In this document: in pieces, positions 44,636 through 54,609 of the stretch
Numbering within the stretch: position 1 is the stretch's first letter
How the letters are laid out: each line of letters starts with the position of its first letter
Assembly (NCBI GenBank): GCA_965242725.1
Contig: CBDESZ010000023.1
Span: 8,758 to 72,757 of the forward strand
Direction: 5' to 3'
From: Alkalispirochaeta sp.
GTDB lineage: Bacteria; Spirochaetota; Spirochaetia; DSM-27196; Alkalispirochaetaceae
DNA: 64,000 nucleotides
The notes under the pieces: model-generated
Databases searched by the model: none
Told to the model about the DNA's origin: nothing
What the model saw: only the letters and a program-made list of their open reading frames with translations
Position numbers and translations under genes: made by a program

Positions 44636-45936
44636 GCCCCTATTGTAGCGACTACACCATTGATGTCCAGATCTTTCACATTTTCCCTGCTGCCGAGGAT
44701 GCGGAGGTTCACAGTTCCCGCCTCATATTCCACGCGGCCGCAGATGACGGCGTAGGGAATACCCTTCTTTTCTGCAAAAGCAAACTGTTGCCCAAGCTTT
44801 TTTGACTCCGGAAATACTTCACAGCGAAGACCCCGTCGTCGAAACTGTTCCGCCAGATAATGGTAGTGGGCTATCAGCGACTCATCCTGCATTGTAATGA
44901 GCACATCCGCGGAAGCTGTTGCCGAAGTGTCGTCGGAGAGTTCTTCCAGGGCGGCCAACAGGCGGTCGAGGCCGATCGAGGCACCGACTCCCGGCATCGC
45001 CTCCTTGCTGTACAAGCCGACAAGGTCGTCATAGCGTCCGCCGGAACAAACCGAGCCGATATTTTCCACGCCCTGCAGGAAGGTTTCAAAGACAATGCCC
45101 GTATAGTAGTCCAGGCCGCGGGTTATCGACGGATCGAGTTGAATATGTTGTGCCAGTCCAAGCTCGTCCACCGCTGCGGCGATCGATCGAAGGCGCCGGG
45201 TATCCTCGGAAGCACCTCCCGCCAGCGCTTCAAGGACGGTGATGATCTCCTCAGGCGTGCCCGTCGCCTCAATGAACTGCAGAATACCGTCGGCGACGAC
45301 GGGTCCCACCAGCTCCGCGAGCTGGCTCCGCGTCTTTTCTCGGCCGACTTTGCGGATCTTGTCCACACTTCGCAGGACCTCTTCGGTCCGGTGGGATACC
45401 CCGTTGTGGGCGAGAAAACGGTTGAAAACGCCCCTGTGGGAAATGTGAATAGTGATGCCCTCGACACCGAGCGCCCGGAATGCGGAGACGATCATGAGAA
45501 TGATCTCCAGATCAGCCGATTCCGCCGTCGTGCCGACGATATCAAAATCGCATTGAGTAAACTCCCGATATCGTCCGCGCTGCGTGTTTTCACCGCGAAA
45601 GACCTTTCCCACGTGGTATCGCTTGAATGGAAGGTAGAGTTCCGGTCTGTGGAGCGCCATGTACCGTGCAAAAGGGACGGTGAGGTCAAATCGCATCGCC
45701 ACGTCGCGGGAACCGTTATCGATAAAGCGGTACACCTGTTTGTCCGTTTCGCCGCCCCCCTTGCCGAGGAGGACTTCGGTATATTCCAGTACGGGCGTGT
45801 CTATGGGGACGAAGCCGAACGATGAAAAACAGTCTTCCAGAATACGCGTCAAATCGCGGCGGCGCATTTCCGCATCGGGAAGGAAATCTCTAAAACCTTT
45901 GAGGACTTTCGGTTCAATCTGCATGGGAATATTCAT
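44632..45936 (-). CDS. hisS: Histidine-tRNA ligase
   Basis: Motifs KGFRDFLP, RFDLTVP, GRYREFTQCDFD, RGLDYYTG and GGRYD. Confidence 0.97.
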   Translation of the reverse strand: MNIPMQIEPKVLKGFRDFLPDAEMRRRDLTRILEDCFSSFGFVPIDTPVLEYTEVLLGKGGGETDKQVYRFIDNGSRDVAMRFDLTVPFARYMALHRPELYLPFKRYHVGKVFRGENTQRGRYREFTQCDFDIVGTTAESADLEIILMIVSAFRALGVEGITIHISHRGVFNRFLAHNGVSHRTEEVLRSVDKIRKVGREKTRSQLAELVGPVVADGILQFIEATGTPEEIITVLEALAGGASEDTRRLRSIAAAVDELGLAQHIQLDPSITRGLDYYTGIVFETFLQGVENIGSVCSGGRYDDLVGLYSKEAMPGVGASIGLDRLLAALEELSDDTSATASADVLITMQDESLIAHYHYLAEQFRRRGLRCEVFPESKKLGQQFAFAEKKGIPYAVICGRVEYEAGTVNLRILGSRENVKDLDINGVVATIGA

Positions 45937-45997
45937 ATACTACTCGGGAAGGGACCGCAAGGCCGACGGCGGCCGTGAAATTTGTTAATTTCAACGT

Positions 45998-46453
45998 ATG
46001 ACCATTGCAGAACAACAGCGTGAGGAAGCACGAATCTACCGGGAAATGGTTCCCCGTATTGTCGAATCCCTTCTGACGGGAGAAGAACCCGTCGGAGCGT
46101 CACAGCGATTGGCGGAACAGTTCGAGATGGATCGCGCCCTTGTATACAAGTGGTTTCAGTTGACCGAAGCGGATCTCGAACGGCACCGGAAGAAATATGC
46201 CTGGCGGCATGTCATTCCCCTGTGGGTCGCCGCCGCGGGAATGGCGGCCCTCGTTGTTGCGGCCCTATCCGGTGTTCTCTCTCTGACCGGAGGGTGGCCT
46301 CCCTGGGCGCTCGGTTTTCTCGTCGTCGTGGAAGGAGCGATCGGTCTTCGCCTCTTCGGTCTGAAAAGAAGGGCCTATTACAGACGTCTCCGGAAACTCA
46401 GCTCCGATGAGGAAGTGGCGATAGGCGGTGACGGCACCACAAAAGAGACGTGA
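45998..46453 (+). CDS. Hypothetical membrane protein (2 TM)
   Basis: 151-aa ORF preceded by an extended -10 (TGtTAATTT). Two C-terminal hydrophobic helices. Confidence 0.7.
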   Translation: MTIAEQQREEARIYREMVPRIVESLLTGEEPVGASQRLAEQFEMDRALVYKWFQLTEADLERHRKKYAWRHVIPLWVAAAGMAALVVAALSGVLSLTGGWPPWALGFLVVVEGAIGLRLFGLKRRAYYRRLRKLSSDEEVAIGGDGTTKET

Positions 46454-46457
46454 TTTT

Positions 46458-46486
46458 TTTACATCGCCGGAATTTCCTGATATACT
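46458..46486 (+). promoter_or_regulatory. Near-consensus sigma70 promoter
   Basis: TTTACA-N17-TATACT with an extended TG at 46478-46479. Confidence 0.75.
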
Positions 46487-46491
46487 GTGAC

Positions 46492-46572
46492 TCTCAGAGT
46501 CGACATTTTTACCTGACGGAGAATGTCGGCGCCTAAGGAGGTAGCTGTCGGGTGGTCCCGACAGCTTTTTTT
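46492..46572 (+). ncRNA. Candidate small RNA or cis-regulatory leader of rnz
   Basis: Promoter, 12-bp hairpin (46499-46530), TAAGGAGGT linker, then a 10-bp terminator hairpin with a T-tract. Confidence 0.55.
46543..46572 (+). terminator. Intrinsic terminator
   Basis: AGCTGTCGGG-TGGT-CCCGACAGCT followed by TTTTTT. Confidence 0.85.
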
Positions 46573-46622
46573 ATCTTCCGCCTCGACTCTTGCCGTCGTC
46601 CAATGGTACATTTGCCGCTCTT

Positions 46623-47561
46623 ATGAACATGGAAGCTTTTGTACTCGGAACGGGTGGCGCCATGCCGTTGCCCAACCGTCATCTTACTTCCGTTCTCTTG
46701 CGCCGCGAAGGCGAGGTGTTTCTTTTTGACGCCGGTGAGGGAACTCAGGTGAGTCTTCGCGCATTGAATCTCAAGTGGAAAAAAATAAGCGCGATTCTTA
46801 TTTCCCACACCCACGCCGACCACGTCACCGGTCTTCCGGGAATGCTTATGCTCTCCAGCCAGGCTGATCGGCAGGATCCTCTGTACGTCATAGGCCCCCC
46901 GCGAATCCGCGAATACGTGGAGGCGAATCGGCGCGCCCTAGAAATGTATATCAATTACGAAATCCGTGTTGAAGAAATCGCCGATCCCTCTCTACCCCGG
47001 ATCGTCTTTGAAGGAAATGGATTCGCAATCCGATCCTTTCCGCTGCGCCACTCCCGGGTTTGTGTGGGGTACAGTCTGATCGAATCTCCCCGGCCCGGCG
47101 TCTTTTTCCCGGAGAAGGCCGACGCCCTTGGCGTCCCGCGCGGTCCCCTCTGGGCGCGGCTGCAGGCGGGTGAGACGGTACACCTTGAAGACGGGACGCC
47201 CGTCTCACCCGGGCAGGTTCTCGGTCCCGAGCGGCGGGGCCGAAAATTCAGTTATGTGACGGATACCCTTCCCCTCGACACCATTCCCGCCGAGGTTGCC
47301 GACTCCGATCTGTTGATCAGTGAGGGGATGTTTACGGAGGAGCACCGGGAGAGTGCCAGGGCAAAAAAACACATGACCGCCGGCGACGCGGCCAGGATTG
47401 CCCAACAGGCGGGCGGAGTCGAACGGATGGGATTGATCCACTACAGTCCACGATTCACCAACCGCCAACTGAAAGAACTCCTGAAGGAAGCGTCGTCCAT
47501 ATTCCCCCGCACTTTTCTCACCCGGGACCGCATGAATATCGATATTCCCTATCGGGATTGA
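46623..47561 (+). CDS. rnz: Ribonuclease Z
   Basis: LGTGG..P, FDAGEGTQ, SHTHADH..GLPG, exosite GVP.GP.W and IHYSPR. Confidence 0.95.
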   Translation: MNMEAFVLGTGGAMPLPNRHLTSVLLRREGEVFLFDAGEGTQVSLRALNLKWKKISAILISHTHADHVTGLPGMLMLSSQADRQDPLYVIGPPRIREYVEANRRALEMYINYEIRVEEIADPSLPRIVFEGNGFAIRSFPLRHSRVCVGYSLIESPRPGVFFPEKADALGVPRGPLWARLQAGETVHLEDGTPVSPGQVLGPERRGRKFSYVTDTLPLDTIPAEVADSDLLISEGMFTEEHRESARAKKHMTAGDAARIAQQAGGVERMGLIHYSPRFTNRQLKELLKEASSIFPRTFLTRDRMNIDIPYRD

Positions 47562-48659: not shown

Positions 48660-50285
48660 TCAGTATCGGCTCAAACGGGAAAAAATGAAACCCCGCACCT
48701 TTCCGATAAGATCGACGACCCGCCGGTCCGGAGATCCGGAACTGTCTGTGATCGTTGAGAGAAGGGGAAGGTGTGCCCGCCCGTGAGCACCCAGCAGACC
48801 CATAATCAGAGGTGTTGCCTCATCACCGTGGCCGACGATCTTCCGTTCCAGACGATTGAGTTCTTCCACATGGTTTTCCCAGAATTTCCGGATATCCATT
48901 CCGGTGAAGCTTTGTGCGCGGTGAACGGTGCGTGCTCCGGCTGCGAGGATATCCGCGGTTCGCGTCTTCTGCGCCGCCATCCCCGGCATTTCAAATATCG
49001 GACCCTGATCGCCGTCGCGTGGTGATCTCAACGTAGCCGCCGGATAGACCTGATCGGAGAAGAAGGATTCCATCGGACGGAGTCGGGACGCCCTCATCTG
49101 CGCAAGGGTGTAGTGATAGGTTCCCCGGGCGTATGTTTTTCCCCGGGGATAGGAGAAATCCGCACCGATAACTTCCGCAACGGATCCTCCGTTTCGGAGT
49201 ACAAGCCGCAGCGCCGTTTCCGTAACGTTCCGGCTTCCCGGAACGAGGAGCATGGGAAGACCTTCCGCTGCGAGGAGCGTGTGCAGGGGATGGGCGCTGC
49301 CGAGAGGAACGAATACCTTCCCGCATGCGGGCAGGGACGGGGTGACTCCCCAATCGCCCCAGACCACCGGCACGGCCGCAGGGAGCGCACGAAAGTGGAG
49401 AGGACTCCATCCCTGGGGATCAAGGGTAACCACACCGGTGAAGCTGCACCGCCGTCGTATCAGCGCGGGGAGTGCGGTGTCAACGACAATGTTGTTCAGC
49501 CCGTCCGCAACGCATCGCCCGGCGGTGGACGAGCGCCGGAGAAATGTGTCAAGGGAAGGTCCGGCAGCAAGAATGCGATTTGGTCTCGACCGCACGACTT
49601 CGGCGGTACGGGAAACCGCCTCTTCCGCCTTTTGCAGGTTGACCCTGAGGGTGTTTTCCACCGTGTGGGTAAACCATGCGCGGCTGTAACGGCGGATCGC
49701 CGCGTGTTCTCCGGCGATTTCCCGCATCGTCCGGGAGACAACATTTCGGAGGGATTGAAAATGGGGCGCCTGTTCCGGTCTATCGGCCCACGGCCGGAGC
49801 TCATAGACGGACAGGCCGTCCCGAATCGCCGGCTGGTGGTGAGTTGTAATGAGACGCTGGAGTGTTTCCTCGTCCGTCGCGATATAGAGTCGATCCGTCC
49901 CAAAAGAAGCGGCCAGATCTATCTCCTCCAGTACCGTACGGACCGTAGGGTACCCCTGTTCGGCGACAATGACCGTTGCAGATGGGAATCGCCTGAGGTA
50001 TTCCCGGGGAACAAACATGGCGCCCATACCGAGAACCACTAGCGTCGCGGACGCACCGATAGCGTCGATCGCCCGTCGCGCCTCGTCAACGGGACGGTAT
50101 CGGGAGTGAATCTGTAGAGGCTGTGCGGCGGAGTTTCCCGTAGTCGCGAGGGAGGGTGATCCGTCACGGGCCGTCTGGGGAAAGATGGCGTCATTGCGGC
50201 GTGCAGAGGCGACACGCTCTGCCACGTCGGGCTGACGGAGCGACAGGGCGATGATGTTGTTCCTGAGTAGATCGGAGGGTCTCAC
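48660..50285 (-). CDS. Maf/MptE-like (DUF115) protein
   Basis: 'IHSRYRP..EA', 'AAGPSL', 'VDTALP', 'LDPQ', 'NVT' and 'GADFSY'. Confidence 0.8.
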   Translation of the reverse strand: MRPSDLLRNNIIALSLRQPDVAERVASARRNDAIFPQTARDGSPSLATTGNSAAQPLQIHSRYRPVDEARRAIDAIGASATLVVLGMGAMFVPREYLRRFPSATVIVAEQGYPTVRTVLEEIDLAASFGTDRLYIATDEETLQRLITTHHQPAIRDGLSVYELRPWADRPEQAPHFQSLRNVVSRTMREIAGEHAAIRRYSRAWFTHTVENTLRVNLQKAEEAVSRTAEVVRSRPNRILAAGPSLDTFLRRSSTAGRCVADGLNNIVVDTALPALIRRRCSFTGVVTLDPQGWSPLHFRALPAAVPVVWGDWGVTPSLPACGKVFVPLGSAHPLHTLLAAEGLPMLLVPGSRNVTETALRLVLRNGGSVAEVIGADFSYPRGKTYARGTYHYTLAQMRASRLRPMESFFSDQVYPAATLRSPRDGDQGPIFEMPGMAAQKTRTADILAAGARTVHRAQSFTGMDIRKFWENHVEELNRLERKIVGHGDEATPLIMGLLGAHGRAHLPLLSTITDSSGSPDRRVVDLIGKVRGFIFSRLSRY

Positions 50286-50286
50286 A

Positions 50287-51834
50287 TCACCTCTCCACCC
50301 ACCGCATCATCGACACCAGCTTCATTTTTCCTGCAGCCAGGGCGTGACGGAGCTCGCCCCGATCCCGCGACGCGGCAATTGTCTCCACCGGTGCGAGGTG
50401 CAGGAGTAACGATGTCACGGAATCCGTCGGCGTGCCCGTTTCCAGCATATCGTGCCAGTCGTTGAGAACGCTCATCGTGTGTCTGCGCCGTTCCGACAGG
50501 GACGGACGTTCGATGGGGGTGAAGGTGACGGAACCTCGTTTCAATGCCGCCGGCCGTGGCGTGGTTCCGGCTGCGTCATATCGTGGAACGCCGCTTTCCC
50601 GCCAGGTGGGGGCGGACGAGAGGTTGTATACACTCCGTCGCCTGCGGATGCTTTCGATGCGTGTCGCGACGGGCTGGAGAAAGGCTGCCAGCGACGGCGT
50701 GCGAAAGGCTCTCGTACCGTCCGGCCACGACAGGGGAGGAATATCACCGACCATTCCCGACCGTTCGGCCCGCAGCGTCGTATCGGGACGCAGTCGGTTC
50801 GTCCGGGCGTCGATGAATCGATCATTTGGATGGGGGCGTCCGTGGATGATAAGGTCGTACGTGCACAGATCGATGCCGATGAGATAAAGGGCGGACCCTT
50901 CAGGGAGCAGGGAGTCACTGTAGGCGAGGGTGGAACCGGTTACTGTCGGAGCTTCTCCGATATGGGGCCATTCGCTTCCGTCTATTGCGAGGATGTCGCC
51001 GATCCAGCCGGAGCGGACGCAGATTTCCGGAAACGGTCCTCTGCCGGTTCCGCCGCTGCTGCGCAGGGATACCACCGTCGGAATCCGACGGCGATATCTC
51101 TTAGCCCAGAATCCGGCGTCTAGGTGGACGAGGATATCCGGGCTCACTCCCGCATGAAGCAGGGCGTCGGCGGCCGAGCTGGCCGCGATGACCACCGGTT
51201 CAACCGTCTTCAGAAAGTCCCGGGGCAGCGGTTGTGCCACCGACGGTCCCCCGGCGCAGACGAGTGTCGCTCCGGCGTGGGTGCCTGGAACCAGCCGCTC
51301 TTCCAGCCTGATCGCTCTCCCCAGGGCGTTGCGGAGCCAGGTCATGCCGAAGGAGGCAACTGTGTAGAGTTCGCTCTGACCATCCTGGACTCCCTGAACG
51401 ACTCCCTGCTGCACCGATTCACTCCAGTCGGTGATGCACTGCAGCGCAGGAGGCCACAGGAACGCCTGGACTCTGGATACGTCGAGCAGGGTCAATGCAT
51501 TTCTGATTCGACCGCGTATATCAAGTACATCCGGGACGGCAATGGGAATGCGGTGTATCCTGCCGGAGAAATCACCCTGTACATGTTGAAAGGTCACCGC
51601 AATAACTTTCATTGACGGATATCGTTCCGCAAGGCGGCTGGAGAAGTAGGGTACACCCTCACCGATGACGATGACGACGCCGTCACTCCGCTCCGGCACA
51701 AAGCGGTCGAGGACGCGCTCCGCCTCTATACCCGGACGATATGACGAGTGGAGAAATCTCCCGGCGACCCGGATCGTGGTGTTTCCATCAGCGGTGGGAA
51801 GCGTCTCGTATTGCACTGTTACGTTCTTCGGCAC
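50287..51834 (-). CDS. Maf/MptE-like (DUF115) protein
   Basis: 'LHSSYRP..EA', 'AGGPS', 'ASSA', 'PD....DAGFWA', 'TVTG' and 'GIDL'. Confidence 0.8.
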   Translation of the reverse strand: MPKNVTVQYETLPTADGNTTIRVAGRFLHSSYRPGIEAERVLDRFVPERSDGVVIVIGEGVPYFSSRLAERYPSMKVIAVTFQHVQGDFSGRIHRIPIAVPDVLDIRGRIRNALTLLDVSRVQAFLWPPALQCITDWSESVQQGVVQGVQDGQSELYTVASFGMTWLRNALGRAIRLEERLVPGTHAGATLVCAGGPSVAQPLPRDFLKTVEPVVIAASSAADALLHAGVSPDILVHLDAGFWAKRYRRRIPTVVSLRSSGGTGRGPFPEICVRSGWIGDILAIDGSEWPHIGEAPTVTGSTLAYSDSLLPEGSALYLIGIDLCTYDLIIHGRPHPNDRFIDARTNRLRPDTTLRAERSGMVGDIPPLSWPDGTRAFRTPSLAAFLQPVATRIESIRRRRSVYNLSSAPTWRESGVPRYDAAGTTPRPAALKRGSVTFTPIERPSLSERRRHTMSVLNDWHDMLETGTPTDSVTSLLLHLAPVETIAASRDRGELRHALAAGKMKLVSMMRWVER

Positions 51835-52857: not shown

Positions 52858-54609
52858 TCAGGTCTCGAGCCCGAGTTCCTCAAAGAGCCGCTTGTATACC
52901 TCGAAATGCTCGGATTTTGCGAACTCCTCGATCTTTTCGTCAGGAAGCGCTTCAAGCAATTGATCCATATAGGAGAGGACGGAGCGAATCTCTTCCTTGA
53001 GGTCGTCCGGAAGGTCCGAAATTGAGGAAGCCGAATGTGATTCTTCCTCGTCAAGGTCCAATCCCTCCTCGGGTTCCTCATCGAGAGTGAGTTCATCAGG
53101 GGATTCCTCGTCGATTGTCAACTCATCCGCTGAGCCGTCATCAAGGTCCAGTCCGCGGGGACGTTCCAGTTCATCATCTTCGAGGTCCAGATCGTCGAGG
53201 TCGTCAAGATCCAGTTCGATCTCTTCCTCTTCCTCTTCCGATTCGTCTTCACCTTCATCGGTGTCTTCGTCGGAGTATTCGTCGAGAACGTCGTCAAAAT
53301 CATCGTCCAGTTCGATCTCTTCCACGCCGGCCACCGACGCCGGTTCAGTATCGGGTTCCTCTTCCTCCGGTCCGATGTCACTCTCCACCTGGTCGGCAAA
53401 GGAGTCAAATCCGTCGTCGTCCAGTTCTTCAAGGGAGTCAAGATCGATTTCAAGCTCGTCGATATCGTCGGTCGCCGTTCCGTCGGAGTCTTCAGTGTCA
53501 TCCACGAGGGAATCGATGTCGGAAAGTTCCCGGTCGATATCCATATCAGCCAGTTCCTGTACCGCCGAATCGTCTTCTTCTTCCTCTTCCGGTGAAGGGG
53601 CGCCTTCGTCGTCGGGTTGCTCAAGAATGAAATCATCATCCAGCTCTTCAGCCTCGCCGGCCTGCTCGGTAAATTCAGCGGTATTCAGTATGTTGTCCAG
53701 CTCATCTCCGGTGAGGGCGATCGTCTCATCTTCGTCCTCGTCAAAGAAACCGGAAGGGTGTGACGCCTCGGCAGCTTCTTCCCCTTCTTCGTGGACTTCC
53801 TCGTCGACGGCAGGCGCGTCTTCCACTTTCACGCCTTCCATGTCGGGTTCGCTCTCCGCGGCGTCATCGGCCGGTACGGGAGCCTGGCGTGCACCGCGCA
53901 ATGCGATCTTGAGTTCCGCGAGTTCCCGTTTTATGTCCGAAAGTTCCTGTTGAATCTGCTGGAAGGCTTCACGTTCCTGTGTGTCCATCGTGTCTGGTAT
54001 AGCACTTTCATCGGGGTTTTGCAAATTTTCCTCGTCGAGAAACTCCTCCTCGTCGGGGGTGATTCTGTTTGTCGGGCTTTCCGGGACAATGTCAATTCCC
54101 TGTTCCTCCGGCGTGAAATCGTGCTCTTCATCCACATCCAGCTCCGGAAGTTCTTCACCCTCATCGGATATCGATACGTCGTCAAACGAAAAGTCTTCAA
54201 GTTCATCGTCCGTACCGGGAATTGTGGAATCGAAGGCGTCTGCCGACCCGTACTCCTCGTCGAGAGCGGCAAAGGGATCGGTCTCTCCGTCGGGTTCCTC
54301 AATATCCAGATCGTCAAGGGATACGAGATCATCGTCCTCGTCGGAATCATCATCGACGGAGGTGCGGGGAATGGCGAAGTCATCGGTATCGTCGTCCAAC
54401 GAAAGTTCATCCACATCGAGATCTTCGATGTCGGGAAGGTCGAGGTCGAAATCGTCGTCCACGTCCGCCGCCGCTCCCCCCGCCGACGGCAGGTCGGTAA
54501 AGGCGAAGTCGTCGTCCGCTTCGATGACCTCCTCCGGACCGGCTTTTACCCACACACCGTAACGTTCGAGATCTTCTTCCTGATATTCGCCATGTTTGTA
54601 TTCACTCAT
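52858..54609 (-). CDS. Highly acidic low-complexity protein
   Basis: 583 aa, D/E-rich. Ordered islands include YGVWVK, a coiled coil, ETIALTGDELDNIL and a C-terminal helical domain. Confidence 0.88.
   Translation of the reverse strand: MSEYKHGEYQEEDLERYGVWVKAGPEEVIEADDDFAFTDLPSAGGAAADVDDDFDLDLPDIEDLDVDELSLDDDTDDFAIPRTSVDDDSDEDDDLVSLDDLDIEEPDGETDPFAALDEEYGSADAFDSTIPGTDDELEDFSFDDVSISDEGEELPELDVDEEHDFTPEEQGIDIVPESPTNRITPDEEEFLDEENLQNPDESAIPDTMDTQEREAFQQIQQELSDIKRELAELKIALRGARQAPVPADDAAESEPDMEGVKVEDAPAVDEEVHEEGEEAAEASHPSGFFDEDEDETIALTGDELDNILNTAEFTEQAGEAEELDDDFILEQPDDEGAPSPEEEEEDDSAVQELADMDIDRELSDIDSLVDDTEDSDGTATDDIDELEIDLDSLEELDDDGFDSFADQVESDIGPEEEEPDTEPASVAGVEEIELDDDFDDVLDEYSDEDTDEGEDESEEEEEEIELDLDDLDDLDLEDDELERPRGLDLDDGSADELTIDEESPDELTLDEEPEEGLDLDEEESHSASSISDLPDDLKEEIRSVLSYMDQLLEALPDEKIEEFAKSEHFEVYKRLFEELGLET

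Follow-up and report, generated by a model that had tools for sequence, protein, structure and literature searches.

The window analysed here, a 64,000-nt stretch of DNA from Alkalispirochaeta sp., holds a short intergenic region between a 151-aa gene and rnz, which encodes an RNase Z-like metallo-beta-lactamase; hisS lies divergently in the same neighbourhood, beside these two genes. Between the stop codon of the first gene and the start of rnz we find a promoter-like sequence, a hairpin, a Shine-Dalgarno (SD) sequence and an intrinsic terminator in close succession, followed by a second promoter element. The features are, in window coordinates:

45998..46453, + strand: gene for 151 aa, hydrophobic in the C-terminal half and lacking a Pfam match; upstream neighbour
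46458..46463, + strand: -35 hexamer TTTACA of the predicted sRNA promoter, poorly kept in homologues
46478..46486, + strand: extended -10 element TGn-TATACT (TATACT in 6/7 homologues and TACAAT in 1/7, TG in 6/7)
46493..46572, + strand: predicted sRNA of ~80 nt, its putative start ~7 nt past the -10 element
46499..46530, + strand: P1 hairpin of 12 bp (arms 46499-46510/46519-46530) closing an 8-nt loop, ACCTGACG; the 5 copies that can be aligned show compensatory changes
46516..46520, + strand: ACGGA at the edge of loop and stem, putatively the upstream site for CsrA (4/7 copies have ANGGA at this place)
46534..46542, + strand: TAAGGAGGT, the SD segment between P1 and the terminator
46535..46541, + strand: AAGGAGG, invariant in 7/7 copies and with no conserved start codon behind it
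46543..46572, + strand: intrinsic terminator, a 10-bp stem (46543-46566, -18.8 kcal/mol; compensatory changes) followed by a T run
46604..46612, + strand: TGGTACATT, a separate extended -10 element of rnz, 10 nt 5' of its ATG and found in 17/21 family loci
46623..47561, + strand: rnz, 312 aa; downstream neighbour

The initial annotation had described the promoter, stem, SD and terminator, and each was recovered in the sequence at the positions assigned to it. The promoter (TTTACA and TATACT, 17 nt apart, with the TG extension) agrees with the consensus at 10 of 12 positions and is the sole such match in 45500-47500; because shuffled sequences yield 0.7 such matches per region, the match taken alone is at chance level, and it is the recurrence of the -10 hexamer at similar spacing in 7/7 homologues that backs the promoter call. 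The 81-nt unit at 46493-46573 folds with -37.2 kcal/mol (z -5.3), and none of 200 shuffles reached so low an energy. The SD segment had been read as a full 9-nt complement of the anti-SD; since the 16S 3' end of this genome reads ...GATCACCTCCTTTCT / ...CACCTCCTTTCT, the match comes down to 8 nt (AAGGAGGT), and the duplex with this anti-SD has 8 bp and -12.5 kcal/mol. Three of the 829 AAGGAGG sites in the genome were flagged as being followed by a hairpin and a T-rich tail, and only the one described here precedes a clear terminator. In folds of the isolated RNA, the U tail or a local GCCU often pairs with the SD, whose 3' half mostly has a probability of <0.3 of being unpaired.

Several further observations concern the surroundings of the unit. 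Only in this genome is there a CTG at 46545, 3 nt past the SD, from which a reading frame runs into rnz and would lengthen it by 26 codons. Most members of the genus keep the N-terminal ~76 aa of the 151-aa gene, at 33-59% identity and encoded between hisS and rnz. At 47549-47561 the stop ends of rnz and of a convergent 367-aa gene overlap by 13 nt, which makes antisense readthrough likely. Two adjacent long genes and a very acidic 583-aa low-complexity protein occupy 48660-51834 and 52858-54609, and one long gene of this region has a weak match to MptE-like proteins, which we take to be motility-associated-factor-like. A related DNA contig differs from the window at 46489 and 46533, among the differences listed, both of them outside the stems; there are 14 further differences.

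Conservation and distribution of the unit

Following a suggestion of the initial annotation, we searched related spirochaetes for conservation and covariation. The complete unit (extended -10, P1, AAGGAGG and terminator) is present in 7/17 genomes of the genus and in 0/5 other genomes of the family, the carriers being labelled Alkalispirochaeta, Spirochaeta or Spirochaetaceae. AAGGAGG is exact in every copy at RNase Z identities of 74-84%, and the base after it (position 8) varies between T, C and G. The distance from the -10 element to the SD is 48, 50, 49, 50, 51, 41 and 47 nt in the seven copies, thus 47-51 nt in 6/7, as against a variable 83-120 nt from the SD to the rnz ATG. Folding of the 5' region that contains P1 has z scores of -2.0 to -3.4 in 6/7 copies, and the spacer toward rnz has z scores of -1.0 to +1.7.

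Compensatory changes were found in both helices. The terminator stem pairs fully; the U tails are weak in G008 and G014. Pair counts for P1 use 5 of the 7 copies, G002 and G012 being left out because their 5' hairpin does not align; in these five, 82% of P1 cells are paired and 4 pairs have changed on both sides. Over the same five, covariation of the whole structure is 0.375, compared with 0.235 in shuffled alignments (3/500) and <=0.18 when the structure is slid along the alignment. As the structure was derived from one of the sequences and the number of copies is small, we consider the support moderate. The stem GCTGYCGG/GCCGCCGG is typical of terminators in this lineage and turns up at unrelated loci throughout the order; because the stem is generic among spirochaete terminators, its sequence is no evidence of a special function.

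We detected rnz in 16/17 genus genomes, and at 9 of these rnz loci the element is missing. Every one of the 7 copies is placed immediately 5' of rnz; the 151-aa gene precedes 6 of them and a different gene precedes the copy in G014. On a tree of RNase Z the carriers do not form one clade and are scattered in a way that calls for 4 changes, and this single-gene tree suggests that the element is old and may have been lost several times. Upstream of rnz in G003 there is a duplicated GTCGGGATCGCCCG that resembles the terminator arm, possibly the remnant of a decayed element.

Searches beyond these loci delimit the distribution further. No additional copy was found within the same genome or in the plasmids, phages and viral contigs searched. 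A pattern scan of one genome per species returned 9 loci, comprising 6 known relatives and 3 unrelated taxa without the promoter and P1, and a scan of metagenomes returned 23 loci with 1 true copy, again 5' of rnz, which matches the G008 copy and is thus not independent. With covariance model R1, run on 99 genomes of the order, the 29 weaker matches inspected beyond the 7 copies were generic terminators, and model R2, built without the terminator, recovered only its 5 training copies; both searches score only part of the candidates, and relocated or diverged copies are accordingly not found rather than proven absent. Other matches to a relaxed promoter-plus-SD pattern were mostly ordinary mRNA leaders, and 0 of them had a terminator behind the SD. 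The distribution is narrow: the carriers belong to a single genus of environmental spirochaetes, represented in this analysis mainly by metagenome assemblies.

The structured RNA had initially been described as belonging to no recognised family, and this held. In Rfam searches of 46000-47000 the only match was to ncS01, at 16 bits against a gathering score of 58 (E=5), with no family at or above its gathering score; the six homologous loci gave 0 matches, and ARAGORN called no tRNA or tmRNA. Literature searches returned no description of the RNA; for PMC8632094 and PMC5737381 this applies to the main text, and their supplementary motif tables could hold a match. We conclude that this structured RNA unit is real and conserved, restricted to the genus and, it appears, not yet catalogued.

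Readings of the conserved RNA

The unit is most likely a stand-alone sRNA rather than a riboswitch of rnz, and we regard it as probable that this RNA of ~80 nt mimics an mRNA leader without an ORF. A stand-alone sRNA was among the options raised initially, and the analysis supports it. The predicted sRNA would be made from its own sigma70-type promoter and ended by a constitutive terminator. With promoter, hairpin and AAGGAGG, its front end would look like that of an mRNA translated at a high rate, with the terminator occupying the place of the start codon; ordinary genes of the order have promoter, hairpin and AAGGAGG-N4-6-ATG at equal spacing. The two helices would shield the ends and hold out a short SD segment, which could sequester an SD-binding factor. 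The likeliest such factor would be a CsrA dimer, contacting the GGA of the SD together with a second GGA 19-22 nt upstream once the weak top of P1 opens, and its sequestration would relieve flagellin-type mRNAs of repression. Pairing of the loop ACCU with AGGU may tune the availability of the SD.

We propose this CsrA-type decoy mechanism tentatively. A mimic of a CsrA-bound leader is ranked first on the basis of the presence of csrA and fliW in the genome (92% complete), in which Hfq was not found, the layout of the flaB leaders, the ANGGA motifs and the literature on CsrA sites. In two of the three flaB leaders, a GGA displayed in a hairpin loop precedes the GGA of the SD by 21-23 nt, and in the RNA itself ANGGA is part of the SD in 7/7 copies, with a second ANGGA 19-22 nt upstream in 4/7. 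The recognition sequence of CsrA is RUACARGGAUGU, preferably with the GGA in a loop, and the sRNA McaS binds CsrA through two or more sites (PMC4347634). In Treponema and Leptospira, CsrA sites have been reported close to the SDs of flaB (PMC9481697, PMC8668096). Against a CsrA decoy, the upstream GGA is located at or within the top of the stem and not in a loop, as CsrA prefers (PMC4347634), G014 retains the SD GGA alone, and the SD is often paired in the isolated folds. That the last GG never varies and that GGAUG is missing also fits base-pairing better than the CsrA consensus. Furthermore, csrA is present in 20/22 family genomes and hence does not track the RNA. Elsewhere in the genome, the flagellin leaders at G000:C18:333258 and C26:111401 have the CsrA-type hairpin loops CAGGGAC and CAAGGATG, and C26 also bears a flgL-fliW-csrA cluster.

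It is unlikely, in our assessment, that the RNA is instead a stand-alone base-pairing sRNA, whose AAGGAGG would serve as a seed for CCUCCUU-containing RNAs and either sponge an anti-SD-type sRNA or open anti-SD leader hairpins. The 7 invariant nucleotides are exactly complementary to CCUCCUU and are set between two helices, as sRNA seeds often are, and G-rich sponges of C-rich sRNAs are known from Firmicutes. However, exact complements at other places in the genome reach no more than 10 nt, with none convincingly at a start codon; among 3751 crudely called genes, duplex scans singled out no target; a partner sRNA was not identified; and Hfq was not found in the 92% complete genome.

A cis-acting attenuator or riboswitch is rather improbable. 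Here a loop-SD pseudoknot, stabilised by a ligand or protein, would invade the base of the terminator and cause readthrough into rnz, or readthrough would occlude the rnz promoter. All 7 copies sit before rnz, even behind the different upstream gene of G014; this counts against our preferred reading and leaves room for a cis role, since a constant position 5' of the same gene class is what a transcriptional attenuator would have. The weak U tails of G008 and G014 also speak for it. The pseudoknot itself, proposed initially from the complementarity of TACCT and AGGTA, is present as a possible pairing with ambiguous and weak support. In one alignment 24/25 of its cells are paired with 2 two-sided changes (5/7 copies), but another alignment gives 85% and one two-sided change, it is not evident in G002 and G012, and the change in G007 is equally compatible with P1 and the terminator base considered separately. 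The helix overlaps P1 by its first base and the terminator by its last, and shuffling the loop produces five Watson-Crick pairs of this kind in 7.2% of cases. Only 1-2 pairs of the terminator would be lost to it, with -17.2 or -13.8 kcal/mol remaining; it may act as a modulator, not as a switch.

Other lines of evidence also argue against control in cis. Forbidding the terminator costs 16-20 kcal/mol in 7/7 copies (ddG, nested folds), and by this measure none of them has a competitive antiterminator. In stepwise folding P1 forms ahead of the terminator; given this order and the cost of losing the terminator, the alternative pairing of CGACA with TGTCG suggested initially, whose bases are indeed present, is not workable as an antiterminator. 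The 24-codon GTG ORF whose stop overlaps the rnz start (ATGA) likewise exists in the window, but its overlap with the rnz ATG is not conserved: a GTG lies <=16 nt from the SD in 2/7 copies and its frame meets the rnz ATG in 1/7, so the ribosome-coupled attenuator built on this ORF is not supported, and the conserved uORF behind the SD that marks leader-peptide attenuators is absent. The separate rnz promoter, in contrast, stands as a conserved extended -10 element: TGnTAnAnT is found 10-11 nt before an ATGAAYATG start in 17/21 family loci, including all 7 carriers, and rnz has no SD. It is probably a near-leaderless mRNA expressed from its own promoter, to which readthrough would add little; the riboswitch of the initial annotation is thus weakly supported at best, and rnz is probably not regulated by the RNA, which 9/16 of the genus rnz loci lack.

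We judge it similarly improbable that the unit is a relic or insulator. In this reading a deleted gene would have left its promoter, leader and terminator behind, or the hairpin would merely end the gene at 45998, and pairing to the U tail would maintain the purine run. The patchy distribution fits this explanation, as do the generic terminator stem, which in spirochaetes often has a purine run ahead of it, and the consensus fold from RNAalifold, which pairs the SD with the U tail. Pairing with U would permit exchange of A and G, yet AAGGAGG does not vary among the copies; the internal promoter and P1 are conserved, the latter with compensatory changes; and no other AAGGAGG site of the genome precedes a clear terminator.

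A more speculative and still less probable variant is an 'empty mRNA', in which the SD would be the only conserved payload, gated by the loop-SD pseudoknot and titrating or sensing free 30S subunits or CsrA, possibly tying the output of RNase Z, the maturation of tRNA 3' ends, to translation capacity. The least probable reading is an RNA that binds 30S subunits, as a decoy for free small subunits or as a sensor whose nascent SD recruits a 30S subunit that blocks the terminator (STAB-SD-like, with no start codon): the ~12 nt between the two stable helices are too few for the mRNA channel, position 8 varies, and a start codon at useful spacing is not conserved. The 8-bp match to the anti-SD of this genome speaks for it, as does the SD-only 30S binding proposed for the cry3Aa STAB-SD (PMC12970973). 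The C-terminal domain of RNase J (PF17770) was not found in the 92% complete genome, which makes a STAB-SD purpose unlikely.

For the preferred stand-alone sRNA, the consequences depend on its partner. Control of CsrA in spirochaetes is thought to run mainly via the protein FliW, and PMC8668096 mentions one CsrA-like ncRNA, identified in Leptospira biflexa. If the CsrA decoy is correct, a minimal leader-mimic sRNA would provide RNA antagonism alongside FliW and without Hfq; if the partner were the 30S subunit, a new regulatory principle would be involved.

Comparison with known systems

The STAB-SD of Bacillus thuringiensis cry3Aa shares with this RNA a perfect SD without a start codon, but it lies in a long 5' UTR and protects the mRNA, whereas here only a terminator follows; a start-less SD ahead of an mRNA body in an RNase J host is not what this locus contains. 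In H-type pseudoknot riboswitches (preQ1, SAM-II, SAM-SAH, fluoride, guanidine-III) a loop can likewise pair with an SD-like 3' strand near a terminator. Unlike these, the present RNA matches no Rfam family, has no conserved core resembling a ligand pocket across the 7 copies, would adopt an unusual topology (no L1 linker), lacks a switchable terminator, and precedes a gene with its own promoter.

The CsrA-bound flaB/hag leaders also combine a GGA-containing hairpin with an AAGGAGG SD ~20 nt later; the differences are that no start codon or ORF is present here, that the terminator follows at once, and that the loop is ACCUGACG rather than CAAGGAUG. The CsrA-sequestering sRNAs (CsrB/CsrC, RsmY/Z, McaS) resemble the predicted RNA, as judged from its sequence, in standing alone with their own promoter, ending at an intrinsic terminator, having no ORF, carrying SD-like ANGGA motifs and occurring in genomes with csrA. 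McaS has as few as two sites (PMC4347634), but as a group they have many, in contrast to the one or two here, where 1-3 GGA occur per copy instead of several in loops and the upstream one is at a loop edge or paired; no Rfam match links the RNA to them, and its host also has FliW. Although it falls outside the canonical Csr/Rsm sRNAs, the RNA may work like a Csr antagonist.
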